In this document: positions 2,356 through 52,761 of the stretch, piece after piece | Layout of the letters: every line of letters begins with the position of its first letter | Position numbering within the stretch: position 1 is the first letter of the stretch | Assembly (NCBI GenBank): GCA_040371255.1 | Contig: BAABOD010000001.1 | Coordinates: 60,545-124,544 of the forward strand | Reading direction: 5' to 3' | Origin: Anaerolineaceae bacterium | GTDB lineage: Bacteria; Chloroflexota; Anaerolineae; Anaerolineales; Anaerolineaceae | DNA: 64,000 nucleotides | Position numbers and translations under genes: made by a program | Notes under the pieces: model-generated | What the model saw: only the letters and a program-made list of their open reading frames with translations | Told to the model about the DNA's origin: nothing | Database searches by the model: none

Positions 2356-2646
2356 TTATCGTTTGCTTTTATTTTCCATCAATAATTTTAGATAATCATC
2401 TTTTGAGATGTGGCAATCTAAAATGCCTTTGAAAACATTAGGTTTGACTTGCAATTGTCTTGAGATAATGCTAAGGAGTGAATCTTCGATATCTTTTTTA
2501 TGATTGGTAGGTAACATGGTGGTAATGGGGTTTAGTCCCTCAATCTCGAGCACATACCAAGAGTGCGGGTTATTGGGGCGACTTTTTAATGACATGCCTA
2601 ATTTCTTTATTAAAATTTTTTCAACATCTGAAGGTTTATAACCCAC
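2356..2646 (-). CDS. HicA-like toxin candidate (mRNA interferase fold), extended C-terminus
   Basis: KPSDVEKILIKKLGMSLKS..NPHSWYVLEIEG..ITTMLPTNHKKDIEDSLLSIISRQL resembles the HicA/YcfA pattern (helix, His-containing strand, 'vP.H.kdl..g.l..Ilkq'). AT-rich. Last gene of a 3-gene operon. Confidence 0.4.
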   Translation of the reverse strand: MGYKPSDVEKILIKKLGMSLKSRPNNPHSWYVLEIEGLNPITTMLPTNHKKDIEDSLLSIISRQLQVKPNVFKGILDCHISKDDYLKLLMENKSKR

Positions 2647-2661
2647 TCTTATTGCCTTCGC

Positions 2662-3048
2662 TTAGCGAGGTTTAATATATTGCTCTACTAAATTAAGCGC
2701 ATCTTTTTCGCTGATTCCATTATTTGAAACTTCAAGAATTATCGAATAGTATTCAATAAGAGATTGTTTATAATCCTCAAGAGCGTCTTTTATCGTTTCC
2801 CCCGTTCCATACACATTAAAAATAGGATCATCCAAAATTACCAAGCCGCTATTATCATGTTCAATTCTTAAATTTAAAGGTTTTGCAAGTCTTAGTTTTT
2901 CATCTAGTGGGCCATAAAGATATAAACCGGGATTTAGACCATGTTTAATATCAGTCACTTCTCCCTTAGTAGGACGAAAAAACGGTTTGGATGTAATCGC
3001 AGCCTTCTGAGTATCGAGATCGTAATAAGGTGTAGCAACAGTGATCAT
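2662..3048 (-). CDS. HicB-like antitoxin-fold protein
   Basis: PIFNVYGTGETIKDALEDYKQSLIEYY matches the HicB/DUF1902 signature 'pg..tqGeTleEAl.n.keAl..'. It ends 15 bp upstream of the HicA-like ORF. Confidence 0.4.
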   Translation of the reverse strand: MITVATPYYDLDTQKAAITSKPFFRPTKGEVTDIKHGLNPGLYLYGPLDEKLRLAKPLNLRIEHDNSGLVILDDPIFNVYGTGETIKDALEDYKQSLIEYYSIILEVSNNGISEKDALNLVEQYIKPR

Positions 3049-3050
3049 AG

Positions 3051-3359
3051 TTATTTCACGCTTTGATTAATTTCATCTTCAGAATCCAACATTTTATGAA
3101 GTAGATCATAAAATGCTTTGATTTGTTCATTCGACATATAAACTTGCGCCACACATTTCGCTTCAATTTTCTCGATTTTTGACAAATTTAAGTTGATCTC
3201 TTCCACATTTCCAATAATTAATGGGGGCTGTATCTCGAAGAAAGAAATCAAATAGTTAGATTCGGTCTTTTGAACCACAACATTACTTGCGTAGCGGGCA
3301 ATCACGCCTTCTGGAATAACCCATTCGATTTGAATTTCCTTATGAGTTTCGTTATCCAT
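3051..3359 (-). CDS. DUF3467-like protein
   Basis: IPEGVIARYASNVVVQKTESNYLISFFEIQPP....AKCVAQVYMSNEQIKAFYDLLHKML fits the DUF3467 pattern (YaN...v.ht..EF.ldF....P...akvv.ri.ms...ak.l...L). Separated by 2 bp from the next ORF. Confidence 0.45.
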   Translation of the reverse strand: MDNETHKEIQIEWVIPEGVIARYASNVVVQKTESNYLISFFEIQPPLIIGNVEEINLNLSKIEKIEAKCVAQVYMSNEQIKAFYDLLHKMLDSEDEINQSVK

Positions 3360-3500
3360 CCTTGCCTCTCAATTTCAGCCAAAATAAAAATATCTGATCT
3401 ATCAGTTGTTCTAACCGTTAATTCTGATTTTTGATTATGAGTGTATTATAAACCCAATCATAAAATTTTAATTTGCTAAACTTCTACATTTATTTTCTCT

Positions 3501-3540
3501 GTTCTCGCCGGTCTCCTGAGTGCGAAGCCTACCCATAGCA
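3501..3540 (-). repeat. interspersed repeat module (GTTCTCGCCGGTCTCC + 25-nt L module)
   Basis: GTTCTCGCCGGTCTCCTGAGTGCGAAGCCTACCCATAGCA. It is near-identical to the reverse complement of 9652..9692 and to 14487..14526. Confidence 0.8.
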
Positions 3541-3630
3541 TACCATAAAAGAACAAGCTCGCATGTAAAGTACCATTAAAAAACAGCTCGTAGATCGAAT
3601 TCTAAACCTTGATGTTCGCTGAACTTAAAT

Positions 3631-5283
3631 ATGATCAAAAATGAGTATAATATTAATATGAACACCCTCTACTACGGTGATAACCTCGATATCCTGCGGC
3701 GCTACATCAAGGACGAAAGCGTGGATCTGATATACCTCGATCCGCCCTTCAATTCCAACGCCACCTATAACGTGCTCTTCGCGCAAAAAGACGGCAGCCA
3801 ATCCAGCGCGCAAATCCAAGCCTTCGAAGACACTTGGCAGTGGGACGAAAATGCCGTGCGTACTTACGAAGAAGAAGTGGAAAAAGGCGGACCGGTAGCG
3901 GATGCTCTGCGCGCTTTTCACCTCATCCTGGGCGGCAGCAACATGATGGCATACCTGACTATGATGGCACCGCGCCTGATGGAGCTGCGGCGTGTGCTCA
4001 AACCCACCGGCAGCCTGTACTTGCACTGCGACCCAACCGCCAGCCATTACCTCAAAGTGCTGCTGGATATGGTCTTTGGCGCTGAAAACTTTAGGAATGA
4101 GATAGTTTGGAAGAGGACAACAGCAAGAAGCGATTCTCGTAAATGGAACCGTGTCCATGACACAATTCTTTTTTATTCAAGGTCTAAAAATTATACTTGG
4201 AACACTCAGTTCATTTCATATGACTCTGATTACTTAAGAAAATTTTATCGTTTTGAAGAAAAAGAAACCGGAAGAAAATATACATTAAGTGACTTAATGG
4301 CAGCAGGCACTAGAAATGGTTCATCTGGTTTACCATGGCGAGGTGTTGATCCAAGAACTCGAGGGAACCATTGGAAATATACTATTGAAAAGCTTGATGA
4401 ATTAGAAAAAATGGGAAGGATTGTTTGGCCTAAAAAGCAAGGAGGCGTTCCTCGTTATAAGAGATATTTAGATGAGATGCCCGGTGTTGCTATACAATCT
4501 ATTATCGCAGATATACCGCCCATTTCTGCACAATCAGCTGAAAAACTTGGTTATCCCACCCAAAAGCCCTTAGCCTTGCTCGAACGCATCATTCAAGCTT
4601 CCAGCAACCCCGGCGATGTGGTGCTGGATCCGTTCTGCGGCTGCGGCACAGCCGTGGTGGCGGCTCAGAAGCTCGGCAGGCAATGGATCGGCATCGATAT
4701 CACTCACTTAGCCATCGGCTTGGTCAAGCACCGCTTAGAAGATGCCTTTGGCGATTCCTTGCAATTCCAGGTGATTGGCGAACCTACAACGTTAGAAGAA
4801 GCCGCGTCCCTCGCAGCCCAGGATAAATACCAATTCCAGTGGTGGGCGTTAGGCTTGGTCGGCGCGCGGCCGGCGGAGGGCAAAAAAGGCGCTGACCGCG
4901 GCATCGACGGACGGCTGTACTTCCACGATGACGCCAGCGGGAAGACCAAGCAAGTCATCCTTTCGGTCAAGGGCGGGCATGTGAACGTCCCGCAGGTGCG
5001 TGACCTAATTGGTGTGGTGGAGCGCGAGAATGCACAGATGGGCGTATTCATCACGCTCGAGGAGCCTACCAAACCCATGCGTGCGGAAGCAGCCCAAGCC
5101 GGCTTTTACCACTCCGAGGTCTGGAACCGGGACTATCCGCGCATCCAGATCTTGACCATCGCGGAGCTGCTCGAGGGCAAGGGGATCGACATGCCGCCCA
5201 TGCGCCAAGTCAGTCAAACCTTCAAGCGCGCCAAGAAGGAGAATCCCAAGGATGGAGAGCAGATGGGGCTGATTGAGGGGTGA
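3631..5283 (+). CDS. site-specific DNA methyltransferase (N6A/N4C, beta-class motif order) fused to a C-terminal Mrr-type restriction-endonuclease-like domain
   Basis: Motif IV DLIYLDPPFNS near the N-terminus. NEIVWKR, HDTILFYS and YPTQKP motifs. Motif I VLDPFCGCGTAVVAAQKLGRQWIGIDI. C-terminal GADRGIDG...VILSVKGG...VRDLIGV resembles the Mrr_cat core. Confidence 0.8.
   Translation: MIKNEYNINMNTLYYGDNLDILRRYIKDESVDLIYLDPPFNSNATYNVLFAQKDGSQSSAQIQAFEDTWQWDENAVRTYEEEVEKGGPVADALRAFHLILGGSNMMAYLTMMAPRLMELRRVLKPTGSLYLHCDPTASHYLKVLLDMVFGAENFRNEIVWKRTTARSDSRKWNRVHDTILFYSRSKNYTWNTQFISYDSDYLRKFYRFEEKETGRKYTLSDLMAAGTRNGSSGLPWRGVDPRTRGNHWKYTIEKLDELEKMGRIVWPKKQGGVPRYKRYLDEMPGVAIQSIIADIPPISAQSAEKLGYPTQKPLALLERIIQASSNPGDVVLDPFCGCGTAVVAAQKLGRQWIGIDITHLAIGLVKHRLEDAFGDSLQFQVIGEPTTLEEAASLAAQDKYQFQWWALGLVGARPAEGKKGADRGIDGRLYFHDDASGKTKQVILSVKGGHVNVPQVRDLIGVVERENAQMGVFITLEEPTKPMRAEAAQAGFYHSEVWNRDYPRIQILTIAELLEGKGIDMPPMRQVSQTFKRAKKENPKDGEQMGLIEG
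5211..5283 (+). repeat. direct repeat copy A (authentic 3' end of the methylase gene)
   Basis: 64 of 73 positions identical to 6301..6373 by manual alignment. The terminal 22-mer is GATGGGGCTGATTGAGGGGTGA. Confidence 0.9.
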
Positions 5284-6300
5284 GAAATTCAGTCTCCAGT
5301 CATTCCAAGATGTTCCAAGCTTGGTCATCTGAGAGGTTTCCAGTACCAATATTTCTCTATGATGGAATTGACCAGATCACAATCCATTGAATAACTTAAA
5401 TATAATTCCTTAGGTAAATAAATATGGCCTTCAATCCTTATAAGAATTCCTTTGATATTTTCAATCCGGATTTAATCATGTATCTTGGTTTGGTCGCCGC
5501 CCAAAAGAGGAATGAAGATGCAACCAAATATATATCTCGAATCATGCCCTTTGGACAGAAAGAGTTCTTTATCCGGTCATGCGATAACGATTTGCTCTAC
5601 CAAGAAAATTGCCAGGAACTATTAAGCGAAGTTCTTTTCAAATTTGATTCCTATAGTCTAACAGTTGAACAATTGCATGCCATACGCAATGCGAAAAACT
5701 ATAAAATACCTCCGGAATCGTTGTCCATGCTCGAGGGGGAAAATTACGATGAATTTTTGCACCGCGCACTCCTAGATAATGCGCTTATGGAAGCGCAGTC
5801 CTTCATGGAAATGTACCTGAGATATGTTGCTTTTTTCTCTGCAAGGGAAAAATTTCGTTACTCAAACACTCATAAAATGTTAGAAAAAATTAAAGCTTCA
5901 AAAAGTCAAATAGCAAAAGAAGCCTATGAATACCTAACTTCTAATGTTTATAGTAAATGTCAGAAAACGGATCCTAAACTTTGGGGCGATTATTTAACAG
6001 AATTGCGTAATACTACTACACACGAAAAACAACTCGAACTCTCGAATCATGAAGTGATTTACCCACTCGGTAGAAGCCGAACTGAGATTACCTACCAAAA
6101 CCAGCCAATTGCACGCTTTATGCAAGATATCGAAAACAACATCGTATTTATGCTGCATTCGATGTTTCAAATTCTTTATGGCTTGACGTGGGATGATGCC
6201 AGAGAAAAAATTAAACAAAATTAATCACTTAGTATTTATTTGTTAATACCCAGTAAAATCTCTTTACTGCTGGCTCCCGAAAGTCTACTGATTGACAAAT
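5284..6300 (+). mobile_element. AT-rich insertion cassette 1 (HEPN-like gene) bounded by copies A and B of the methylase 3' end
   Basis: Compositional drop relative to the flanks. Bounded by the 73-bp direct repeats. No recombinase gene inside. Confidence 0.35.
5424..6224 (+). CDS. HEPN-like (RNxxxH motif) orphan protein, Abi-type RNase candidate
   Basis: 266-aa all-helical-looking AT-rich ORF. Motif YLTELRNTTTHEK fits the HEPN R-x4-H (RNxxxH) signature. No other family recognised. Confidence 0.35.
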   Translation: MAFNPYKNSFDIFNPDLIMYLGLVAAQKRNEDATKYISRIMPFGQKEFFIRSCDNDLLYQENCQELLSEVLFKFDSYSLTVEQLHAIRNAKNYKIPPESLSMLEGENYDEFLHRALLDNALMEAQSFMEMYLRYVAFFSAREKFRYSNTHKMLEKIKASKSQIAKEAYEYLTSNVYSKCQKTDPKLWGDYLTELRNTTTHEKQLELSNHEVIYPLGRSRTEITYQNQPIARFMQDIENNIVFMLHSMFQILYGLTWDDAREKIKQN

Positions 6301-6373
6301 CAATCAGATCTTCAAGCGCGCCAAGAAGGAAAATCCCAAGGCTGGAGAGCAGATAGGGTTGATTGAGAGGTAA
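6301..6373 (+). repeat. direct repeat copy B (displaced pseudo-3' end of the methylase gene, still ending in a stop codon)
   Basis: Would encode ..FKRAKKENPKAGEQIGLIER* versus the authentic ..FKRAKKENPKDGEQMGLIEG*. Confidence 0.9.
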
Positions 6374-6393
6374 AAAACTTAAATTTAACCTGT

Positions 6394-6508
6394 GTTCTTG
6401 CACGGTACCCGATGGGCAGGCTGCGCACTCTCCAGACCAGGCAAGGCATTTGACCATTAGGTCTCAAATATGGAGACCTTCGGTCAACTTCCTCGCTGGT
6501 GAGGACAC
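6394..6508 (+). repeat. composite three-hairpin repeat element (HP1 with L insertion, HP2, HP3)
   Basis: GTTCTTGCACGG[TACCCGATGGGCAGGCTGCGCACTC]TCCAGACCAGGCAAG; TTGACCATTAGGTCTC..GGAGACCTTCGGTCAA; CTCGCTGGTG-AGGA-CACCAGCGAG. Same architecture as 9249..9373, 9444..9604 and 30624..30742. Confidence 0.85.
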
Positions 6509-6524
6509 CAGCGAGAGCAGGGCA

Positions 6525-6546
6525 GTTAGGGCTGATAGCGGGGTGA
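6525..6546 (+). repeat. 22-bp core copy C (GTTAGGGCTGATAGCGGGGTGA)
   Basis: Matches the methylase terminal 22-mer and copy D at 9170..9191. It directly follows the composite repeat. Confidence 0.75.
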
Positions 6547-9169
6547 GGTATTCCCCCTAACTTGCAGGGCTAACGCTTTGTTTTTGGTATCGTTGCTTTT
6601 TTACGCCTTTTCTCTTTTTTTAGCATCAGTCAAAATTATTGAATGTTGAAGTAATAAACCCAGCTAGCAGTAAAATCGCCGCTTTGATCTACAATAACCG
6701 GATTATCAGAAGGTTCCCAATGATCATTGAACCAAACAGTTATTCCCTGGGTGTAATTTCCCGTTCGAGAATAATCGAAATTAACCTGCATAATTATTTG
6801 GCTGCCTTCCAGAGAAAGATTACCGGAGCCGTTCATAATGTAAGAATAATCATATTCCCAAACTGCATAATGTTTTTCCATATTTGGATCATCAGAAAAA
6901 GCTTCTTTTGCCACACCATTTGCACTGATAAAGGCTCCAATCTCTACATTTCCAGTTTTCGAGCGGTTATCCCAAGTCCCTTCCATGGTAAAGTCAGTGG
7001 TCTCGATATTCCAAAGGAGTGTACCTTCCTGCCTCGTTGTCGCTACATACGGGACGCTCACAGAGAAATGACCATCTTCCTCAATGGGAATAACGCCAAG
7101 CTCTTCTAAAGCAGCAAAGATACCAGCACTTTCCGGAGAATTCAGAGTCCCTTTGGCAAAAACCATACCCGTGGCTTTCTGCTCTCCGATATCGACTTGG
7201 ACGGTTGGAGGGGTTACGATAAACTCGATGGTTTTCAAAACATTGTCAGGTTCATCCGGAGAAACAATTTCAATCTTGTTGGGAGAACCTGCCATCAGAT
7301 GGCCTAAGATTCTAAAAGGCAGGCTGGCTTTGCCCTCGTTATCAATGACTTGCTGCCATTTTTCTTTGTCTTTGACTTCCTCTGCCAACGGGGCAATCCG
7401 AGCGATATAACCGGCATAAGAGGATTTCAATGGTTTTGGTTCGGCTTGATCATAAGCACTGTCGAATACCTGTATCGTTACGAGTGTGTTGAGCTGCTTG
7501 GCAAGTTCATCCAACACCTTTCTAAGTTCAGTTTGCTGTTCAGCAGCTAACTTACGGCTGATTTGGCCAAATACCGGCTGAAGTAAGCCTTGTAGCAGCT
7601 CTATTTTATGATTTCTACTAAGTTCATCCATGATAGCCTGATTCAATCCGCCACCGCCGGTGAATCCATATTTCATTGCCTCATCTTGATAATAAGCTAC
7701 GACAGTTTCATCTTCCCAAAATTGCTTGGTATAACGGTCAATTTCAGCCATGACCTTCTGGTTCAGCTCATCTGGCGATTTAGCCGCCTTAGCCATGGGC
7801 ATTAATATGAGGTACCAATCTTTAGCGGTTCGTTTGGCTTCTCGTTCATAGTAAAGACGATAAGCTTGATCATAGATATCCTTCCTACCGCTGAGAGCCT
7901 CATTGGCAAACTGCGTTATAGAATAATCGATACAAAACACGCCAACAGAAGCGAGGTTCATCATTGAGGTTCCAAATTTGGAAACACTAAAGTTGGTGAG
8001 GTTTTTAATCAAGTTGACATAGAGTGCTGTATTGTTCCCGCTTTGATAGTCCACAGCAGCCTGGGCAATCGCTGAGAGCAAACCCAAGTTGGTCATTAGA
8101 TTGCTGATATTCTCAATAAAATCTGACGCATAAACAACAGAGCTCATATTAAGCCCAGCGCCTGTAATGTTTAGCCAATCGGTGACAATAGCGTTGCCAA
8201 GAACCAGAGCTGAGGGTCCTGGGGTCATATTCTGTTCAATTGCTTCGCGAATAATATCTTCATATTGGGATGATAACGTTGCGGCTCTCATTGCTATACT
8301 AGGGATGGTATATTGGACATAAGCTGCCCGGGTGTATTCTTTCCCTACCACAAAAGCACCAAAAATAGAAAGATGGTCAGTTGTGATAATCACATTACTA
8401 TGGACTTCATCGATGCGAAAATCAACGCTTTCCCATTCCTGAGTACTTTCATTAAAATAAGCCGCGCCTACCTGCCGAGAGACATCCACGTTAGGATCGA
8501 GCTGAGATTTATCATAGGGTAAGGTGATCCACATAACACCAGCTAATTCCTCATCCGTATCGATATCAAAATCATAGCCAGTAATTGAAATTTCTTCCAA
8601 GGGCGGCAAATCATTCCTGGGAGTAATGGTCACTTCGGCTGGATTATTGAGACAAACTGGAGATATTTCTATCCCGACACCATTGTCGGAAACTTCAAAG
8701 ATATTATTGCTCAGAGTTCCAACGATGGCATTTTCATCTGGAACGCTTGCTTCCGTTTTCTGTGTTGTGGTTGGCTGAGGTTCACTTCTATTGCAGGAGG
8801 GAAGAGTTATAACCAAGAATGCAAAGATTAGGAGCAAGCTAAGCGTTTTTTTGGCATTAGTCACAAACAATTGGGGTTTCATTTTTCATCTCTCCTCTCA
8901 GGGTGATTTATTTATAAAGGCTATGGATTCACTGATTAACTCCATACCTACGGATTAATCATTTAACAACACTTACTAACCAACGTTGACGTTGATTTTT
9001 TCATAACTTATCAGTGACATTTCGAGTAAACATTGGTTGCTAAAACAATGAACCTACGAACGGGCTTACAAATGAATTATACATTACTTGTTAGGTTTAA
9101 AAGGCACATTTTTTTGTAATACATTGAAGGCTCCCACCCTCTTTTGGAGATCAGGTCAGGCGGAAAGCC
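6547..9169 (-). mobile_element. AT-rich insertion cassette 2 (748-aa lipoprotein gene) bounded by core copies C and D
   Basis: Lower GC than the flanks. Bounded by the 22-bp core copies in direct orientation. No recombinase gene. Confidence 0.3.
6636..8882 (-). CDS. large secreted/lipoprotein of unknown function
   Basis: 748-aa ORF with RBS GGAGAG. N-terminus MKPQLFVTNAKKTLSLLLIFAFLVITLPSC (signal peptide, lipobox-like LPSC). No domain recognised. Confidence 0.7.
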   Translation of the reverse strand: MKPQLFVTNAKKTLSLLLIFAFLVITLPSCNRSEPQPTTTQKTEASVPDENAIVGTLSNNIFEVSDNGVGIEISPVCLNNPAEVTITPRNDLPPLEEISITGYDFDIDTDEELAGVMWITLPYDKSQLDPNVDVSRQVGAAYFNESTQEWESVDFRIDEVHSNVIITTDHLSIFGAFVVGKEYTRAAYVQYTIPSIAMRAATLSSQYEDIIREAIEQNMTPGPSALVLGNAIVTDWLNITGAGLNMSSVVYASDFIENISNLMTNLGLLSAIAQAAVDYQSGNNTALYVNLIKNLTNFSVSKFGTSMMNLASVGVFCIDYSITQFANEALSGRKDIYDQAYRLYYEREAKRTAKDWYLILMPMAKAAKSPDELNQKVMAEIDRYTKQFWEDETVVAYYQDEAMKYGFTGGGGLNQAIMDELSRNHKIELLQGLLQPVFGQISRKLAAEQQTELRKVLDELAKQLNTLVTIQVFDSAYDQAEPKPLKSSYAGYIARIAPLAEEVKDKEKWQQVIDNEGKASLPFRILGHLMAGSPNKIEIVSPDEPDNVLKTIEFIVTPPTVQVDIGEQKATGMVFAKGTLNSPESAGIFAALEELGVIPIEEDGHFSVSVPYVATTRQEGTLLWNIETTDFTMEGTWDNRSKTGNVEIGAFISANGVAKEAFSDDPNMEKHYAVWEYDYSYIMNGSGNLSLEGSQIIMQVNFDYSRTGNYTQGITVWFNDHWEPSDNPVIVDQSGDFTASWVYYFNIQ

Positions 9170-9191
9170 GTTAGGGCTGATTGAGGGGTGA
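9170..9191 (+). repeat. 22-bp core copy D (GTTAGGGCTGATTGAGGGGTGA)
   Basis: Its last 19 nt match the corresponding part of the methylase terminal sequence (5265..5283) at 18 of 19 positions. Confidence 0.8.
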
Positions 9192-9248
9192 ATCGAACAA
9201 CACGAGTAATACCTTTGCAAAGTATTTTCGTGGCTTTCCTTGCCTCCC

Positions 9249-9692
9249 GTTCTTTCACGATACCCTTCGGGCAGGCTATGCACGCTCCTGACCATGAAAG
9301 GCATTTGACCTTTAGGTCTACAATAAGGAGACCTTCGGTCAACTTCCTCGCTCGGTCAGAGACCGGCGAGAGCAGGCAGTGCTCGCTCGGTACCCTACAA
9401 GTAGGCTGCGCACTCTCCTACCATGAAAGGCATGGGTCCCTTTGTTCTTTCATGGTCTCCTGACCATGAAAGGCATATGACCGTTAGGTCTCAGGTTTCC
9501 TACTCCCATAAGATATCGATAAGTGCAATAAAAAATGGAGACCTGCGGTCAAAATCCTCGCTGGTCCTTACAGGAGGCTCTGCACTGAGGACACCAGCGA
9601 GAACAACCAAAGATGGAGACCGGCGAGAGCAGGGCAGTTTGCTCGCTCGGAACCCTACGAGTAGGCTTCGCACTCAGGAGACCGGCGAGAAC
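9249..9692 (+). repeat. dense array of modular palindromic repeats upstream of uvrB (two complete composite elements plus extra HP3/L modules)
   Basis: Composite elements at 9249..9373 and 9444..9604. Additional CTCGCTCGG[L]..GGAGACCGGCGAGAAC units at 9381..9432 and 9615..9692. Confidence 0.85.
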
Positions 9693-9753
9693 GAGAGCAT
9701 CATAACCTCTGCAAACTGTCTTTGCCATCTTCCCTTGCCTTATAATTATCCCC

Positions 9754-11796
9754 ATGGAATTTGAACTACACGCACCTTATCAACCCACGGGTGACCAGCC
9801 GGAAGCTATCCGCCAGCTCGTCGAGGGCATCAAGAAGGGTTACCGCAATCAAGTGCTGCTGGGCGCCACGGGCACGGGCAAGACTTTCACCGTCGCCAAT
9901 GTCATCCAGGAGCTGCAGATCCCCACCCTGGTGATGACTCACAACAAAACCTTAGCCGCTCAGCTCTACGCCGAGTTCCGCGAGTTTTTCCCCAATAACG
10001 CCGTCGAATACTTCGTCTCTTACTACGACTACTACCAGCCGGAAGCCTACATCCCGCGCCGTGACCTCTACATCGAGAAGGAAACGGACATCAACGAGGA
10101 GATTGAGCGCTTGCGCCTCTCCGCCACCACGAGCTTAATGTCCCGCCAGGATGTCATTATCGTGGCGTCGGTCTCTGCCATCTACGGCTTGGGCGATCCA
10201 GAAGCTTACGGCAAGAGCGTGTTGACCCTCGAGACCGGTAAGATTTACCGCCGCAATGCCCTGCTCCGCCAGCTGGTGGATATCCAATATCAACGCAACG
10301 ATTTCGAGCTCAAGCCCGGCGTCTTCCGCCTGCGCGGGGATACACTCGAGATCCTGCCGGCTTATCGCGACCGCGATATTTACCGCGTCAGCTATTTCGG
10401 CGACGAGGTCGAGCAAATCACCCGCTTGGACCGCATGACTGGTGAAGTCGTTGAAAAGCTGGATAGACTGGATATTTACCCCGCCAAGCACTACATCACG
10501 GAAGAAACACGCAAAGAAACGGTGCTGCAAGGCATCGAGGCTGAGCTGGAGGAACGCTTGGCTTATTTCCGCAAGGAAGGGCGCATCCTCGAGGCGCAGC
10601 GGCTGGAGCAGCGCACACGGTATGACCTGGAAATGCTGCGTGAGGTGGGTTACTGCGCCGGCATCGAAAACTATTCGCGCCACATCGACCAGCGCCCGCC
10701 GGGCTCACCCCCTTGGACGCTGCTGGATTTCATGCCCTCGCGCTACTTGATGGTGCTGGATGAATCGCACATGATGATCCCACAGCTGCGCGGTATGTAC
10801 AATGGCGACCGTTCCCGCAAGGAAGTTCTGGTCGAGTACGGTTTTCGGCTGCCTTCAGCGCTGGATAACCGCCCGCTTAAGTTTCCGGAGTTCGAGAAGA
10901 TGATGGGTATCACGCTCTATACCAGCGCCACCCCAGGTCCTTATGAGATGGGCAAAGCAGACCAGGTGGTCGAGCAGATCATCCGCCCAACAGGCTTAGT
11001 TGACCCGAAGATTACCGTGCGCCCAACCAAAGGGCAAATTGATGATCTCGTGGCAGAGCTACGCAAGCGTATCGCCAATGGCGAGCGCGCACTGGTTACC
11101 ACGCTGACCAAACGCATGGCGGAGGACCTTTCCACCTATCTGACCGAGCTAGGCTTCAAGGTGCACTATTTGCACTCCGAGGTCGAGACGCTGGAGCGCG
11201 TCAGCATCTTGCGGGATTTGCGCATGGGCGTTTACGACGTGGTGGTGGGCATCAACCTGCTGCGCGAGGGGTTAGACTTGCCAGAAGTTTCCCTGGTAGC
11301 AATTATGGATGCTGATAAGGAGGGCTTTTTGCGTTCAGCCACTTCGCTCATCCAAACATTCGGGCGCGCTGCCCGCCATGTGCATGGTGAGGTGATCCTC
11401 TATGCGGATAAGATGACTGACGCGATGCAGACAGCGATCAACGAGACCAACCGCCGGCGTGCCAAGCAGGAAGCCTATAACGAAGCCCATCACATCTCAC
11501 CGGTGAGCATTACCAAAGCCATCAAGGACCTGACAGACCAGTTAGCTTCCGCTGCTGGTGTGGAACGCCCTGCCAGCCGCAATGCGCAGGAGCTGGCAGC
11601 AAAAATGGAAGTGAAAGAGATGGAGCGCATGATTGCCGAGATGGAAAAGCAAATGCGTGCCGCTGCTTCGCAGCTCGAGTTCGAACGCGCCGCGATGCTG
11701 CGCGACCAAATTTACGAACTGCGCGCTATATTAGCCGAGAGTTCTAACTTGCCAGAATGGAAAAAACAAGAGATCTTAGTGGGTAGGGTTGATTAG
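9754..11796 (+). CDS. uvrB: excinuclease ABC subunit B
   Basis: 680 aa. [17 protein letters not shown], Walker [13 protein letters not shown] box, C-terminal UVR domain ([17 protein letters not shown]). Confidence 0.97.
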
Positions 11797-14486: not shown

Positions 14487-14526
14487 GTTCTCGCCGGTCG
14501 CCGAGTGCGCAGCCTACCCGTAGGGT
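14487..14526 (-). repeat. interspersed repeat module (GTTCTCGCCGGTCGCC + L module)
   Basis: GTTCTCGCCGGTCGCCGAGTGCGCAGCCTACCCGTAGGGT in the rseP/dinG divergent intergenic region. Confidence 0.8.
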
Positions 14527-14658
14527 CCCATGCTAGAAAACGGATTCTTATCTTAATTTAGGACATTTCAAATTTGCTACTTTAGGATAGTATCACTTTG
14601 CTCTTACATCTTTTTTAATTTTACTCTTCGCCACCTCGCCTGATGTATAATTTTCCCC

Positions 14659-26653: not shown

Positions 26654-27175
26654 CTACATCTCCCAGAAGCCGCCCCAGGGAACACGAAAACTGCTTATCA
26701 CCAAAATGACGCCTAAGAGAATATAAAAAATGATCATTGCCGTGCGGCTGGCTTTGGAAAGTTTTACATCGCTCAGATCGCGTTCAATCAGCAACGTCCC
26801 GAAGCCGACCAACAGGAAGACCACGTTGGCATACAGTACCTCCAGACCCGCTGTTGGCATCCCCGTCCCAGTGATAGCTGGCAAAATGTACCAAAGGAAG
26901 GTAGCGAGGCAGACAATCCAGACCGAAAGCAGGCGTGAATCCAGAAATTGCAGCCTCTGTTCAGGTTGGACTCGACGAAAGAGATATTCCACCAGGCTCA
27001 CAAAGGTATAAGCAAAGTAGGACATTTTGATGTGTTGTGCGACGGCTTCACTGGTGCCGGAAAACACAGCTAAAAACGGCGAAGGAAAGAAATCATAGGC
27101 AAAATGCAAGGCAATAAAGGCGAGCCAAAAGGCTAATAGCTTCTGTAAGATAGGTTTGAGCGAACGATCAGCCAT
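26654..27175 (-). CDS. integral membrane protein, unknown function
   Basis: Start taken at MADRSLKP (RBS GGGAG). The 34 upstream codons of the track ORF run into a repeat element. About 5 TM segments. Confidence 0.55.
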   Translation of the reverse strand: MADRSLKPILQKLLAFWLAFIALHFAYDFFPSPFLAVFSGTSEAVAQHIKMSYFAYTFVSLVEYLFRRVQPEQRLQFLDSRLLSVWIVCLATFLWYILPAITGTGMPTAGLEVLYANVVFLLVGFGTLLIERDLSDVKLSKASRTAMIIFYILLGVILVISSFRVPWGGFWEM

Positions 27176-27267
27176 GGATATCTCCCAAAAATAAAGGTGT
27201 TTCAATTTTACCCAATAGCAGCACAACTTTAACAGAATCTTGCGCATCATCATAACCTGCTTCGTCT

Positions 27268-27321
27268 GTTCTTGCATGGTACCTTACGGGTAGGCTGTGC
27301 AACTCAGAAACCTGTAAGAAC
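27268..27321 (+). repeat. HP1 repeat unit carrying an L-module insertion
   Basis: GTTCTTGCATGG[TACCTTACGGGTAGGCTGTGCAACTC]AGAAACCTGTAAGAAC. Confidence 0.75.
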
Positions 27322-27500
27322 ATTGATTGGAAAGTTTGATATGACGAGTATTTCAGCCTATGACCGATCACTATTTCAACCCAGAATACTCTTGACAGTC
27401 AACATAGTTACTGCGAGGAGAGCGCTCTTTGCCCGACGAAGCAATCTTATCTACCGTGGCAAAAGATTGCTTCGCCCCGCTGGGCTCGCAATGACAATAG

Positions 27501-27573
27501 CTCGCTGGTCCTTACAGGAGGTTCCGCACTGAGGACACCAACGAGAACTGAGATTGTGGAGACCGGCGAGAAC
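27501..27573 (+). repeat. HP3 repeat unit with loop insertion plus a terminal GGAGACCGGCGAGAAC unit
   Basis: CTCGCTGGT[CCTTACAGGAGGTTCCGCACTG]AGGACACCAACGAGAAC ... GGAGACCGGCGAGAAC. Near-identical to 9557..9604. Confidence 0.8.
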
Positions 27574-27684
27574 AAAAAGGGATCCATTTTGTCCAGCCTA
27601 ACCATGTTTTGGCGTGCTGTTTGGTTTTATAATAATAAGTTGCACTAGTTAAATAGAACAAATATACCATTTTAGAAGGATTTT

Positions 27685-30623: not shown

Positions 30624-30742
30624 GTTCTTGTTCTTGCATGGTCTCCTGACCATGCAAGGCTTTTGACCTTCAGGTCTCAAAATGTTTGAAATGCGGAGAC
30701 CTACGGTCAAACCCACTCGCACGGTCGGAGACCGGCGAGAAC
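30624..30742 (+). repeat. composite three-hairpin repeat element immediately downstream of uvrA
   Basis: GTTCTTGTTCTTGCATGG-TCTCCTGA-CCATGCAAG; TTGACCTTCAGGTCTC..GGAGACCTACGGTCAA; ..GGAGACCGGCGAGAAC. Confidence 0.85.
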
Positions 30743-30752
30743 AAGGAATAAC

Positions 30753-32078: not shown

Positions 32079-32807
32079 ATGGCTAAGAAAAAATCTTACA
32101 GCTCGCTTTCCTCTTACCGTAAGAAGAAAAAACGCGGGAATACCTTCATCAGCGTGCTGGCTGGTTTGCTCATCGTAGCGGGGCTGGTGCTCGTGGTCAT
32201 GTGGGCTACGGGCAACTTGGCAGGCTCCCCTGGCTGGTTCGCCACTAAAACCCCCACCCCAACCTCTACGGCTACCCCCACACCGGTAACGCCTACCAAT
32301 ACCGCCACGAATACCCCCACCATCACCGAGACGCCAACCATCACGCCCACCTTCACCCCCTCAGCACCGTTCGAATACGTGGTGCAGGAAGACGATAATT
32401 GCCAGACGATTGCCGAGAAGTTCGATGCCGATATTGAGGTTCTGCTCTACTTGAATAACCTGGACAGCCGCTGCATCATTTACGTGGGCGATACCATCCT
32501 CATACCAGCCCCAGGGCAGGAGATGCCTACCGCTACACCGCTGCCCACCGATATCCGTCCTGGCACGATAATCGATTACATCGTGCGCGCCGGCGACACT
32601 CTGGAGGGCTTAGCGATCCGCTTCAACACCACCGTCGAAAAGATTCTCTACGAGACTAACCGCGACCGCCGGAGCAAGAACTTAGATATTATTGAGGATA
32701 ATACTGACCTGTACATCGGCGACCTGCTCAAGATACCGGTGAACTTGGTGACGCCACAGCCCACCGCTACCGCCACCCGAACCCGTACGCCAACCCCCAC
32801 ACCCTAA
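32079..32807 (+). CDS. membrane-anchored LysM-domain protein with Pro/Thr-rich linkers
   Basis: MAKKKSYSS.., one TM segment, TPTPTSTATPTP linker, two LysM-like units (YVVQEDDNCQTIAEKF...GDTILIP; YIVRAGDTLEGLAIRF...GDLLKIP). Confidence 0.8.
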   Translation: MAKKKSYSSLSSYRKKKKRGNTFISVLAGLLIVAGLVLVVMWATGNLAGSPGWFATKTPTPTSTATPTPVTPTNTATNTPTITETPTITPTFTPSAPFEYVVQEDDNCQTIAEKFDADIEVLLYLNNLDSRCIIYVGDTILIPAPGQEMPTATPLPTDIRPGTIIDYIVRAGDTLEGLAIRFNTTVEKILYETNRDRRSKNLDIIEDNTDLYIGDLLKIPVNLVTPQPTATATRTRTPTPTP

Positions 32808-43833: not shown

Positions 43834-44471
43834 ACTTCGTAAACCTGCCCAAAAAGCCCAAGCGGGCCCCGCATGGGGGTGATGTTCCCCGGGCCGAAAA
43901 CCTCTTGCGCTGCCACTCGCACGTCTGTCTCTGTGGAGAAGTGATGTTCGCGGATATCGGCGCCCAGCAAGCGGAACATGAACACCATGAAAGGCCGTTC
44001 TACCGGCACGCCGTAAACCACCTGCCCGCCAGGCTTGAGCACCCGCCAAATCTCCCGGAAAGCCGGGAGCTGCTCCTCTGGCTGTAAGTGCTCCAGGATG
44101 CTGATGAGCAGCACGGCATCGAAGCTCTGGTCAGGATAAGGGATTTGCAGGACGCTGCCATTGCGCAGTTTGGTCTGAACGCCGAGGTTAGCAAACATCT
44201 CTTCTACCTGGCGGGTGTCTGCGGTTAGGTCTAAGCCGTGAATTTCCTGATAAAGTTGGCTGAGGTTGAGGAAACTGACGCCCGAGCCGAAGCCGACTTC
44301 GAGCACGGATTGCCCGCCCATGAGCTGTTCCAAGCAAAGCTCGATGCGCCGCTGGTACATGCGCCCGATGACGGGTAAGCGGTAAAACTTGATCGGGTCT
44401 TTTTCATCCACGCCAACATAACGCTCGAGTGGCAGGAGTTGCAAGCGAATTTGCTCTTTGGGTGGTTTCAT
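43809..44471 (-). CDS. class I SAM-dependent methyltransferase
   Basis: Motif I VLEVGFGSG, post-I HGLDL, motif II FDAVLLISILEH. The last 7 codons (GEFVKLS) are AT-rich. Confidence 0.8.
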   Translation of the reverse strand: MKPPKEQIRLQLLPLERYVGVDEKDPIKFYRLPVIGRMYQRRIELCLEQLMGGQSVLEVGFGSGVSFLNLSQLYQEIHGLDLTADTRQVEEMFANLGVQTKLRNGSVLQIPYPDQSFDAVLLISILEHLQPEEQLPAFREIWRVLKPGGQVVYGVPVERPFMVFMFRLLGADIREHHFSTETDVRVAAQEVFGPGNITPMRGPLGLFGQVYEVGEFVKLS

Positions 44472-44621
44472 GTTGGGCTGGCTTCCAATAAACTAAATAA
44501 TTTTTCAGGTTTCCATTTTACCTTATCCACTTAGAAGACGCACAAAGCAGGCGCTCTGGAAAATATTCCGCTATAATACCATGCGTTGCGTGAGCGACAG
44601 TTTGAAGCGACAGAGGAATTT

Positions 44622-46409
44622 ATGTGCGGAATTTTCGGAATTGTAACTAAAGATGAGCAGCCCTTAGGGCCCATTCTTATCGACGCAGCCAAACGTCTGA
44701 CCTACCGCGGTTACGACTCGGTGGGGACCGCTACGCTCAACAGCGGGCGGATTGACCTGCGCAAAGATAAGGGCCGCGTGGATGAGGTGGCGGAGCGCTA
44801 TAACTTTGCCGAGATGCGCGGGCAGCGTGGCATAACACAGCTGCGCTGGGCTACTTTCGGCGCGCCATCCAAGGAAAATGCCCAGCCACATTTGGATTCC
44901 GATGGCGACATGGTCGGAGCGCACAATGGCAACGTGGTCAATAACGTGGAGCTGCGCCAAGCCTTTATGGCGGAAGGCATGACGGTGCGCTCGCAGAACG
45001 ACGGCGAATCCTGCGTGCATGCCGTCGAGCGGTATGTGAACCAGGGTCAGGACATGGTCAGTGCCATCCGCTTGGCTTATCAGGACCTGCAGGGCGATTA
45101 CGCCTTTGTGATTGGCAGCATCTATGACGACAAGCTCTACGCCATTAAGAAGGGTTCTGGTTTAGTGGTGGGAATTGGCGACGGCTTTACCTGCGTCTCC
45201 TCAGATTTGCCCTCGATCCTGCCACTGACACGTAAAATCGTGCGCCTCAATGATGGCGACGTGGTCACCCTAAGCTGGGATGGCATAGAACTGCACGCGG
45301 TGAGTGACGGCAGCCGGATTGAACGCGAGCCAGAGCTGATCACCGAGGAAATGTCCGCGGTGCAAAAAGGCGGCTATGCTCACTTTATGCTCAAGGAAAT
45401 CCATGAGCAACCCCAGGTGGCACGCGAGCTGCTGCACTTGCTGGCGCATCACCCCGATGTGCCCCGCGTCTTGCAAGCCATAGAAGCCGCGCGTAATGTG
45501 TATTTCATCGGCTGCGGCACGAGCTACCACGCCTGCTTGGCTGGCTCTGTCTACTTTGGCTGGCAGGCAAAACGGGCTGTAATCCCTGTTTTAGCGCCAC
45601 AATTCATCGCGCAGTATGCTCCTGCGGTCAATGAGCAGGATGTAGGCATTTTCGTCAGCCAATCTGGCGAGACGAAGGATGTGCTCAATGCTCTGGAGCG
45701 CGCACAAGCTGCTGGGATGACCTGCTATAGCATGGCTAACGTGATTGGTTCGACGCTGACCAAACAAACCTCTGCCTGGCTGCCATTGACTTGCGGCTAT
45801 GAGATCAGCGTGCCGGCAACCAAGACGTTTACCAATCAGGTGATCACTTTCCTCTACCTGGCTAACCTATTGGGCGGAGGAGATGGGCAGGCGTTGGAAG
45901 GTCTGCCGGTCCTGATGGAAGAAACCCTTGCCGTGTGTGAACCACAAGTGAGGGTTTTGGCTGAAGAGATCAACGCTTGGAATGATCTGTATTGTTTAGG
46001 TTATGGCGCCACGCTCCCCATGGCGCTGGAAGGCGCACTGAAGCTCAAGGAGATCACCTACGCCCACTGCGAAGGCATGCTTTCCACCGAGTTCAAACAC
46101 GGTCCGCTTTCAGCTGTAACCAAGGGCTTCCCAGTGATATTTGCGGTGGGTCCAGAAGACGTGCCGCTCATCGTGAGTGGCATCAACGAGGTAACCTGCC
46201 GCGGTGGGCGCGCGATTGCCATCGGTGCAGAACACAGCCGCCTGCGTGCCAATGCCACTGACCTAATTCCTATCCCGGCTGCCGAGGCTCCCATAGCTGC
46301 ATTGCTGACCGTGCTGCCATTGCAGTTGCTGGCTTATCACATGTCGATTGGGCGCGGCTATGACCCTGACTTCCCGCGCAACCTGAGCAAAACCCTGACA
46401 GTGGATTAG
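44622..46409 (+). CDS. glmS: glutamine--fructose-6-phosphate aminotransferase
   Basis: MCGIFGI N-terminal nucleophile, two SIS domains, C-terminal PRNLSKTLTVD (consensus PRNLAKSVTVE). Confidence 0.95.
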   Translation: MCGIFGIVTKDEQPLGPILIDAAKRLTYRGYDSVGTATLNSGRIDLRKDKGRVDEVAERYNFAEMRGQRGITQLRWATFGAPSKENAQPHLDSDGDMVGAHNGNVVNNVELRQAFMAEGMTVRSQNDGESCVHAVERYVNQGQDMVSAIRLAYQDLQGDYAFVIGSIYDDKLYAIKKGSGLVVGIGDGFTCVSSDLPSILPLTRKIVRLNDGDVVTLSWDGIELHAVSDGSRIEREPELITEEMSAVQKGGYAHFMLKEIHEQPQVARELLHLLAHHPDVPRVLQAIEAARNVYFIGCGTSYHACLAGSVYFGWQAKRAVIPVLAPQFIAQYAPAVNEQDVGIFVSQSGETKDVLNALERAQAAGMTCYSMANVIGSTLTKQTSAWLPLTCGYEISVPATKTFTNQVITFLYLANLLGGGDGQALEGLPVLMEETLAVCEPQVRVLAEEINAWNDLYCLGYGATLPMALEGALKLKEITYAHCEGMLSTEFKHGPLSAVTKGFPVIFAVGPEDVPLIVSGINEVTCRGGRAIAIGAEHSRLRANATDLIPIPAAEAPIAALLTVLPLQLLAYHMSIGRGYDPDFPRNLSKTLTVD

Positions 46410-46421
46410 AGCGGTCTTAGC

Positions 46422-48830: not shown

Positions 48831-48948
48831 AGCCTCATTTTAGCACTGGCAGCACCAAATTAGTTTCAATATGCTCTCACCCTTCCGGGAACCTCAGCAC
48901 ATTAATCGTCGTTAAATCAAACATAGACGTTATGCTAAAATAAAGCTG

Positions 48949-52578: not shown

Positions 52579-52582
52579 GCTT

Positions 52583-52715
52583 GTTCTCGCCGGTCTACCT
52601 TTTCACGCACGTCTCCGAGTGCGTAGACTGACATTAGAGTATCAAGCGAGTAGTTTTGTCCGTAGGTCTCACAAGCATTGCATAGTCGGGAGTGCGCAGC
52701 CTGCCTGTAAGGTAT
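52583..52715 (-). repeat. interspersed repeat cluster (GTTCTCGCCGGTCT.. plus two L-type modules)
   Basis: GTTCTCGCCGGTCTACC...GAGTGCGTAGACTG...CCGTAGGTCTC...GGGAGTGCGCAGCCTGCCTGTAAGGTA. Confidence 0.7.
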
Positions 52716-52761
52716 CATGCTAAAACAAGGAAGAACAAGTTTGTTTGAGAAAACTGACAAT

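Follow-up and report, generated by a model that had tools for sequence, protein, structure and literature searches.

We describe a modular palindromic repeat in a 64,000-nucleotide (nt) stretch of an Anaerolineaceae genome (positions 60,545 to 124,544 of contig BAABOD010000001.1; here called the window), where it occurs in seven intergenic clusters with four complete elements among them. These repeats are very probably repetitive extragenic palindromes (REPs) set in inverted doublets, of the type described as REPINs (hairpin-forming doublets of REPs) or bacterial interspersed mosaic elements (BIMEs), and they belong to a family spread through the Anaerolineaceae. The element is of a kind already known, though not previously described from this group: we found no description of REP elements or of miniature inverted-repeat transposable elements (MITEs) in Anaerolineae, and in the literature found, Chloroflexi were named only in one survey, among phyla with GTAG repeats. 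An earlier note, made from the letters of the window, had classed the repeat as modular, intergenic, and MITE- or BIME-like, with REP/BIME among its closest analogies, and that analogy proved apt, since an inverted doublet of a REP-type hairpin unit was found.

A transposase gene flanked by the same repeat unit

The window is ~97% identical to Candidatus Mesolinea sp. R103_9 (Anaerolineaceae) and 93 to 96% identical to AnMBR.bin307. All open reading frames (ORFs) of 81 repeat-bearing loci were clustered, which exposed a family of ~185-amino-acid (aa) proteins with MPNHxHxIV and YIHxNPVRKG motifs, always adjoining repeat clusters. The family matches the NCBIfam equivalog NF047646, "REP-associated tyrosine transposase" (RAYT), at 94 to 106 bits (cutoff, 80), and its HUH histidines (H59/H61) and Y139...N143 motif are invariant. 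Its score against Pfam Y1_Tnp is 17 bits, under the cutoff of 23; this Pfam model covers RAYTs only partially (PMC6006769). The best PDB match was Escherichia coli TnpA-REP (4er8), a distant relative (phmmer E = 0.002). A protein-guided scan recovered 47 RAYT loci, with one RAYT each in Mesolinea UBA7927, UBA5823, R103_9, and UBA6073 (95 to 100% identity), homologs at 55 to 75% identity in other Anaerolineaceae and Brevefilum, and distant relatives at 39 to 50% identity mainly in Planctomycetota. The search for a cognate RAYT that the earlier note had proposed was therefore rewarded, as a RAYT flanked by the same units exists in sister genomes.

The gene is physically associated with the repeat. 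In 14 Anaerolineaceae genomes, R103_9 included, the flanks on both sides of the RAYT are outward-facing copies of the same ~48-nt unit. Read outward, each flank runs GGAGACCTnnCGGTCA, 4 to 5 nt, the 5' stem, TCnGGAGA, the 3' stem, and GAAC or GATC, with the consensus GGAGACCTnCGGTCAA – N4-5 – CTCGCnCGG TCnGGAGA CCGGCGAG AAC. Each half of the doublet at 30630-30742 in the window shares 42 to 45 of 49 positions with RAYT flanks in other genera (loci L132, L135, and L137), and the left doublet halves of the window align as reverse complements in an alignment of 53 units. Within the gene-bearing copy, the RAYT occupies the position of the variable loop of the dispersed element's central hairpin. 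Because both RAYT flanks, read outward, are the same unit, the 113-nt element is a REP doublet and corresponds to a REPtron without its RAYT.

Since it is a single-copy gene at a syntenic locus whose repeats outlast it, this RAYT behaves as a RAYT and not as an insertion sequence. The scan found one locus per genome, the exception being a tandem pair in UBA6105 (L102 3414-3992 and 5808-6350), whose members are 85 to 87% identical, lie 1.8 kb apart, and each have their own flanking pair. The locus is syntenic among the four Mesolinea-clade genomes. AnMBR.bin307 retains a pseudogene (L171 2968-3058), a 58-nt remnant of the first 19 codons only, with ATG changed to ATA, which is syntenic with the intact R103_9 gene; the repeats of this genome remain. 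Published RAYTs behave in a parallel way (PMC5581495, PMC3333891).

Architecture of the unit and its modules

The basic unit of ~48 nt consists of GGAGACCTnCGGTCAA, 4 to 5 variable nt, a 10- to 11-bp hairpin, CTCGC(n)CGGTC / GACCGGCGAG, with the loop nGGA, and AAC; the hairpin alone spans ~27 to 31 nt, and the inner tail brings it to ~48 nt. Read on the strand GTTC...GAAC, a complete element begins with a left hairpin (GTTCTTGCATGG, an optional insert, TCTCCTGACCATGCAAGGC), continues through a middle part (TTGACCnTnAGGTCTC, a loop of 6 to >55 nt, GGAGACCTnCGGTCAA), and closes with a right hairpin (CTCGCnCGG, an optional insert, TCnGGAGACCGGCGAGAAC). The earlier note had read this as three hairpins, HP1 to HP3. 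All three are present, but they do not stand as separate modules: HP1 and HP3 represent one REP hairpin read in opposite directions, HP2 is built from the two inner ends that adjoin the RAYT in the gene-bearing copy, and HP1 taken together with the left HP2 half is the reverse complement of the right HP2 half taken together with HP3. The spacer between the REP hairpins is a conserved 6+7-bp palindrome with an asymmetric internal loop. The resemblance of the ends to terminal inverted repeats (TIRs), given as 14 of 17 matching positions, is correct with one gap. In REP orientation, the hairpin foot reads (Y)T-GTT before the stem CTCGCC..., and GAT beside the Mesolinea and Brevefilum RAYTs. GGTCTCC forms the REP hairpin's loop as well as the apex of HP2, and it may plausibly serve as a protein-binding core, as had been suggested.

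The optional insert, here called INS, is a 23-nt sequence (TACCCTACGGGTAGGCTGCGCAC) always placed between GG and TC and holding a 5-bp mini-hairpin with a variable loop. It joins any 5' arm to any 3' module and is also present in RAYT-flanking units. Units with INS fold no better than shuffled sequence (z = -0.1 to +1.3), and the conservation of INS lies in its sequence and mini-hairpin and not in a strong fold. Arrays are organized head to tail, and both a 55-nt minimal unit (left outer arm, INS, right outer arm) and lone right halves are common in them. A census over ~1.2 Mb of related loci plus the window gave 88 short right, 48 long right, 38 short left, and 16 long left hairpins and 20 minimal units, counts that are biased outside the window, where loci were gathered via the repeat itself.

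Copies in the window

The repeat is real, with every copy that had been reported present at its coordinates far above chance. The complete copies at 9249-9373 and 9444-9604 and the partial units at 3501, 14487, 27268, 27501, and 52583 stand as first given, while two boundaries needed correction: the copy given as 6394-6508 had been ended too early, as its HP3 3' arm reaches 6518, and that given as 30624-30742 starts at 30630, directly preceded by a GTTCTT duplication (30624-30629). Three pieces of the array at 9249-9692 had not been itemized (9381-9433, 9615-9630, and 9640-9692). The shared orientation holds for the four complete copies only; three clusters of partial units lie on the minus strand (Table 1).

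Table 1. Repeat copies in the 64-kb window, with their parts and covariance-model matches
Position	Strand	Feature	Parts and remarks	Covariance-model matches
3501-3554	-	Minimal "hybrid" unit	Left outer arm GTTCTTTTATGG, 23-nt loop insert (INS), right arm GGAGACCGGCGAGAAC; kept in orthologous stretches L007 and L010	
6394-6518	+	Complete REP doublet	Left REP with INS 6394-6447; central palindrome 6450-6487, 6-nt loop; short right REP 6492-6518	6472-6518 (+), E 3.7e-14; 6420-6466 (-), E 1e-3
9249-9373	+	Complete REP doublet, first in the array upstream of uvrB	Left REP with INS 9249-9302; central palindrome 9305-9342; short right REP 9347-9373	9327-9373 (+), E 4e-15
9381-9433	+	Chimeric unit, class C5-I-A3	Right-hand-type 5' arm GCTCGCTCGG, INS, left-hand-type 3' arm CCATGAAAGGC	
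9444-9604	+	Complete REP doublet	Short left REP 9444-9474; central palindrome 9477-9552, 44-nt loop; long right REP 9557-9604	9444-9493 (-), E 2.6e-12; 9542-9604 (+), E 9e-6
9615-9630	+	Orphan right (3') arm	GGAGACCGGCGAGAGC	
9640-9692	+	Long right REP	5' arm, INS, GGAGACCGGCGAGAAC; array part common to R103_9; L060 alignment begins at 9639	
14487-14541	-	Minimal unit	Degenerate left arm, INS, right arm	
27268-27321	+	Left arm, INS, degenerate right arm	Right arm GAAACCTGTAAGAAC	
27501-27573	+	Long right REP and orphan right arm	Long right REP 27501-27548; orphan right arm 27558-27573	
30630-30742	+	Cleanest complete REP doublet, short forms on both sides	REP(-) 30630-30679; loop; REP(+) 30695-30742	30630-30679 (-) and 30695-30742 (+), on opposite strands; E 1.3e-15 and 6.4e-13
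52583-52736	-	Degenerate doublet	Left REP with INS; right half of central palindrome, 2 mismatches; decayed long right REP	

The seven clusters hold ~17 hairpin units and amount to ~1.1 kb, or ~1.7% of the window, and all lie between long ORFs, which bears out the intergenic location noted before. Allowing up to 3 mismatches, the 16-mer at the right-hand end (GGAGACCGGCGAGAAC) has 11 matches in the window against 0.34 expected, a number reached by none of 100 shuffles, and the left-hand 17-mer (GTTCTTGCATGGTCTCC) has 4 matches against 0.16 expected. GGTCTCC occurs 15 times (4.7 expected), with 11 of the 15 inside elements; the 4 outside are at chance level when set against the 4.7 expected overall. 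A covariance model of the repeat unit finds five window matches at E below 1e-11, and the families returned by a repeat finder overlap the three hairpins of the earlier note. Copies in the window are ~65 to 90% alike. Four clusters lie between divergent and three between convergent genes, and the adjoining genes include a DNA methylase-nuclease fusion, UvrB, UvrA, a DinG-like helicase, and an M50 protease. No Rfam family, Chloroflexi motifs and CRISPR repeats included, matches anywhere in the window at gathering scores; at E values up to 10 over the main array (9150-9760), the best hit was mir-71 at 18.6 bits (threshold, 50), which is noise. An assignment to a known Rfam family, one of the two outcomes that the earlier note had named as refuting, was thus not obtained.

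Folding, selection on the stem, and independence of strand

The short complete element (30624-30748) folds into a single long hairpin with a free energy of -65.5 kcal/mol (z = -9), equally good on either strand. Across the alignment of 53 units, 97.8% of cells in the 11-bp REP helix are paired, compared with 26 to 50% in slid controls, and 6 of the 11 pairs have changed on both sides (24 cells), a level of compensatory change that 0 of 500 shuffles reach. An extra base in the 5' arm (CTCGC-n-CGG) is unpaired in 47 of the 53 units, which recalls the stem mismatch required by TnpA-REP in E. coli REPs (PMC3333891).

Selection acts on the structure and probably not on a transcript. Wobble pairs in the REP stems, read on the top strand, are divided into 46 G:T and 30 A:C, giving no clear transcribed strand; in the INS mini-hairpin the balance is reversed (40 A:C and 9 G:T), mostly through one T/C polymorphism. 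There was no orientation bias relative to neighboring genes, with 17 clusters in tandem spacers pointing the same way as the genes and 22 the opposite way, and a further 26 clusters lie between divergent genes under the same crude gene model; this typing of gene context used an ORF heuristic that wrongly placed 41 of 142 clusters "inside" spurious ORFs, and only its orientation ratio is used here. The hairpins are not followed by a T-run. Neither a target-site duplication nor a conserved target is present in the flanks of 67 left and 116 right ends; these flanks read YYYT|GTTCT and AGAAC|ARRG, which are complementary and merely prolong the palindrome.

Turnover between strains

The arrays turn over rapidly. 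Orthologous spacers differ in module content between strains at 93 to 97% identity: the R103_9 ortholog of the site at 14487-14541 is ~90 nt longer, by half a central palindrome and another arm; the AnMBR.bin307 ortholog of the spacer at 27170-27628 is a different, shorter array; and positions 1162-1200 of the window have no array where the R103_9 spacer has one of 350 nt (locus L060), in which some units, 55 nt long and in tandem, are joined at GGAGACC. In the spacer upstream of uvrB, a single complete doublet in R103_9 stands against an array of 444 nt in the window, with only the last unit (9640-9692) in common.

The array upstream of uvrB also borders a strain-variable island (5286-9639) that extends from the methylase-nuclease gene to uvrB, measuring 4.35 kb here and an unalignable 2.08 kb in R103_9 (L060 3597-5680). 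The island is low in G+C (0.39 to 0.46), is bounded by repeat arrays, and encodes ORFs of 748 aa (6636-8882, minus strand) and 266 aa (5424-6224), both of which lack a Pfam match. Four copies of the methylase-nuclease gene's 3' end (...GEQMGLIEG*) are present, at 5206-5287, 6296-6377, 6517-6546, and 9162-9191, with 80 to 87% identity, and two of the four are no more than fragments that abut repeat arrays. The motif at the junction, GAGAGCAGGGCAGTT, serves again as an array linker at 9366-9384 and 9624-9640, and the sequences suggest microhomology recombination between the repeat 3' arm GCGAGAGC and the gene end GGAGAGCAG. Between two repeat units at 27425-27495 lies a second, unrelated palindromic motif, GACGAAGCAATCTT...AAGATTGCTTCGCC, beside GGGCTCGCAATGACA; it has a single locus in the window and recurs in the R103_9 array (L060 680-725).

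Distribution of the family

Scans with DNA patterns covered 185,579 species genomes, one genome per species. The first scan matched three Candidatus Mesolinea genomes, AnMBR.bin307, and a 1.4-kb contig labeled "Verrucomicrobiota"; among the matches listed from a looser second scan were Brevefilum and at least about 15 further Anaerolineaceae bins, together with scattered single matches in high-G+C taxa, probably due to chance. At least 20 genome bins of Anaerolineaceae contain the same modules, with >100 clusters in sister genomes; the modules are therefore not restricted to this region, the other outcome by which the earlier note would have been refuted. Two of the labels that fall outside the family deserve comment. 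The "Verrucomicrobiota" contig (L007, JAKPVM010000020.1) is 96.9% identical to window positions 2603-4047, a "Chlamydiales" contig (L094, JAJFUY010000232.1) is 88% identical to window DNA, and both carry the same repeats; judged by their sequence, they are almost certainly Mesolinea-like contigs in wrong genome bins. The bin labels of L136 (Trueperaceae) and L143 (Porphyromonadaceae), both with this RAYT, are similarly doubtful.

A proposed mechanism

Known REP systems offer a framework for how these elements might arise and move. The REP doublet (REPIN/BIME) and the REPtron arrangement were defined previously (PMC3116915, PMC3333891, PMC6006769), and REPINs have been suggested to derive from palindromes that flanked an IS200-like ancestor (PMC3116915). 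The E. coli enzyme TnpA-REP works on single strands only, depends on both the tetranucleotide at the foot and the mismatch in the stem, and cleaves at C|T within the inverted REP or the linker (PMC3333891). In the gene-bearing form, the REPtron, a single-copy RAYT is enclosed by two units that both point outward; the dispersed form of 113 nt lacks the gene, its two inner ends pair as HP2, what remains between them forms the variable loop, and the two REP hairpins of the doublet correspond to HP1 and HP3. By homology with E. coli TnpA-REP and the IS200/IS605 transposases, the RAYT most likely binds the folded, single-stranded REP hairpin via its foot nucleotides and stem irregularity, cuts nearby single-stranded DNA, and rejoins the ends. 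Doublets would in this way be copied to new intergenic sites and modules shuffled within arrays. In the 53-unit alignment, the inner tail of the unit carries an invariant ACC|T, while INS has CAC|TC at its right edge; both would be compatible with RAYT cut sites, although this is only a suggestion.

Weighing the explanations

Several observations weigh against a doublet family mobilized by its RAYT. The window itself contains no copy of the gene, and its presence in this exact genome is therefore inferred from the 97%-identical R103_9 (L127). The units adjacent to the Mesolinea RAYT and the dispersed units belong to different subtypes, the former being CGCGCnCGG...CCGGCGCGATC: in the window, six units are GAAC-type and none GATC-type, the Mesolinea flanks are GATC-type, and the window's doublet halves match them at only 32 to 38 of 49 positions. 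The GT[AG]G tetranucleotide, the canonical REP hallmark, is absent from the hairpin foot, and GTAG occurs nowhere but within INS; some RAYT subclasses are known to have atypical feet (PMC6006769). Left and right hairpins mirror each other, yet INS points the same way in both, and a simple mirror duplication of a REP would not predict a same-strand insert. No exact junctions between filled and empty sites were recovered between strains, whose spacers are too diverged to place breakpoints, and the strain differences could stem from recombination or slippage and not from transposition. The collection of loci through the repeat itself, with its bias in copy-number and subtype counts, belongs on the same side of the balance.

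One rival reading, which we regard as unlikely yet worth keeping in view, is that the copies are a relic population: an ancestral RAYT would have spread the dispersed GAAC-type doublets, the present Mesolinea RAYT with its GATC-type flanks would no longer mobilize them, and current array variation would reflect replication slippage, microhomology recombination, and deletion between modules with a common GGAGACC. The subtype mismatch fits this account, as do the tandem 55-nt units of L060 joined at GGAGACC, the chimeric units in which any 5' arm meets any 3' module through INS, the persistence of repeats in AnMBR.bin307 after RAYT loss, and the modest likeness of the copies in the window (~65 to 90%). 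It is countered by the presence or absence of whole arrays between strains at 97% identity and by the E. coli RAYT, which cuts all three REP subtypes (y, z1, and z2) at relatively unspecific C|T sites (PMC3333891), so that a difference in subtype need not block activity; moreover, the search patterns bias the sample toward the GAAC type. A reading prompted by two oddities, the same-strand INS and the subtype mismatch in Mesolinea, is a longer shot: INS (TACCCnnnGGGTAGGCTGCGCAC, at GG^TC) could be a nested mini-module inserted strand-specifically, or the footprint of RAYT cutting and joining, and not a passive loop, and the dispersed Mesolinea doublets could either turn over uncoupled from the resident enzyme or be served by an enzyme with relaxed specificity for the hairpin foot.

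Other readings fare worse. Recognition by host proteins, either as operator arrays of DNA repair genes or as nucleoid or gyrase sites around GGTCTCC, draws on the three of seven clusters that lie upstream of repair genes (uvrB, uvrA, and the DinG-like gene), on the four occurrences of GGTCTCC/GGAGACC per doublet, and on the binding of integration host factor (IHF), gyrase, and Pol I by E. coli BIMEs (PMC6006769). It is improbable as an explanation of the family, because neighbors at other loci are unrelated (secA-like, gyrA-like, and ABC transporter genes), module content at the uvrA and DinG-like spacers varies between close strains, unlike that of a conserved operator, and GGTCTCC outside the elements is at chance level; host use is compatible with a RAYT origin and could be secondary. 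A family of structured noncoding RNAs (small RNAs, untranslated-region elements, terminators, or mRNA stabilizers) would account for strong hairpins with compensatory changes, for the copies at 6394, 30630, and 52583 just after convergent genes, and for the effects on termination and mRNA stability reported for E. coli REPs (PMC6006769). We consider it very improbable in view of the Rfam results for the window and main array, equal folding of both strands, the indifference to gene orientation, the wobble counts of the stem, the missing T-runs, and the physical link to a DNA transposase gene. A classical MITE, that is, a deletion derivative of a DDE-transposase insertion sequence moved by cut and paste through its TIRs, would share with these elements the TIR-like ends, a size of ~110 to 160 nt, and an AT-poor, intergenic palindrome, and it can hardly be credited: there is no target-site duplication, the complementary flanks only prolong the palindrome, the sole gene found between the ends is the HUH/Y1 RAYT, no DDE transposase is among the recurrent ORF families adjoining repeats, and half units and head-to-tail arrays are common. 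The label MITE is therefore to be dropped in the DDE sense, the partner enzyme being an HUH/Y1 protein, and the likenesses to BOX and Correia elements drawn at the outset are formal only.

Some narrower candidates were also set aside. Integron attC sites, imperfect palindromes between 5'-RYYYAAC...GTTRRRY-3' core sites that lie beside gene cassettes and intI, have the opposite polarity to the repeat, which starts with GTTC and ends with GAAC on both strands beside housekeeping genes, and no integrase is among the recurrent ORF families adjoining repeats. Since GGTCTC is recognized by type IIS restriction enzymes and positions 3631-5283 encode a methylase-nuclease fusion, a role as restriction site was considered; it was dropped because GGTCTCC outside the elements is at its expected frequency. 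A LexA/SOS box, considered for the proximity of uvrA, uvrB, and the DinG-like gene, was dropped on account of unrelated neighbors elsewhere and strain variation.

Other features of the window

G+C skew changes sign at ~44000-54000, being negative from 1 to ~44 kb (cumulative minimum at 42 to 44 kb) and clearly positive from ~54 kb, which may mark an origin or terminus of replication, or a place where gene orientation switches strand. ACC/CCN-rich repeats with a 12-nt period lie inside ORFs at 32250-32803 and 52345-52463 and are consistent with Thr/Pro-rich linkers.

Significance and comparison with known systems

Work on REPIN-RAYT systems has so far dealt almost entirely with Proteobacteria and some Cyanobacteria, and the Anaerolineaceae elements are a clean example of a well-known kind from an unstudied phylum-level setting, with some unusual details. 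They are compact, and their RAYT lies exactly between the doublet halves, the arrangement predicted if REPINs arose from the ends of an IS200-like element. Two features fall outside the standard REPIN picture: the same-strand INS, and dispersed Mesolinea doublets that resemble other genera's RAYT flanks more than those of their own RAYT. Natural contrasts for judging how much the repeats depend on their enzyme come from lineages that have the RAYT or lack it, from the two kinds of foot (GAAC and GATC), and from hairpins of short and long form. Because the elements account for ~1.7% of the window and vary between strains at 97% identity, they are useful as strain markers and probably cause assembly breaks in metagenome bins of Anaerolineaceae.

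One close counterpart is the E. coli REP/BIME system with TnpA-REP (Ton-Hoang et al. 2012, PMC3333891; 4er8). Both have short, imperfect, intergenic palindromes that stand alone, pair up in inverted fashion, or form mosaic arrays of subtypes, an HUH/Y1 gene in single copy between inverted copies, and an irregularity in the stem; E. coli strains without the REPtron keep their repeats, as AnMBR.bin307 does (PMC3333891). The foot here is G(T/A)T and not GTAG, the linker is the conserved 6+7-bp palindrome with its asymmetric internal loop where that of E. coli BIMEs is variable, and arrays repeat whole doublets head to tail. The relationship between the proteins is only distant, and the host belongs to Chloroflexota, not Proteobacteria.

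Like the elements described here, IS200/IS605 insertion sequences and their miniature derivatives combine an HUH/Y1 enzyme with subterminal hairpins and show neither cleavage at terminal inverted repeats nor target duplication. In contrast, the enzyme here reaches only 17 bits against Pfam Y1_Tnp and is accompanied by no tnpB, its gene is single-copy and syntenic, and the two ends are inverted copies of each other, whereas an IS has distinct left and right ends. TIRYT/TIRtron systems and the atypical REPs of TnpA-Y1 subclass 2.6 and class 3 (Di Nocera et al. 2013, PMC3733652; Quentin et al. 2018, PMC6006769) also comprise RAYT-like genes between long inverted repeats or recurring hairpins without GTAG, and a further point of likeness is the presence of relatives of the Anaerolineaceae RAYT, at 39 to 50% identity, in Planctomycetota. 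Its tyrosine motif is Y-x3-N, as in class 2, and not the Y-x4-Q of class 3.

In Pseudomonas fluorescens, too, the replicative unit is an inverted REP doublet that forms a long hairpin, the RAYT is single-copy, vertically inherited, and flanked by the abundant repeat, and singlets resemble decayed doublets (Bertels & Rainey 2011, PMC3116915; PMC5581495). The Anaerolineaceae system differs from it in its optional 23-nt asymmetric loop insert, in a Mesolinea RAYT-flanking subtype distinct from the dispersed one, and in a RAYT placed exactly between the two REPs of one doublet, which matches the hypothesis for the origin of REPINs put forward for P. fluorescens.

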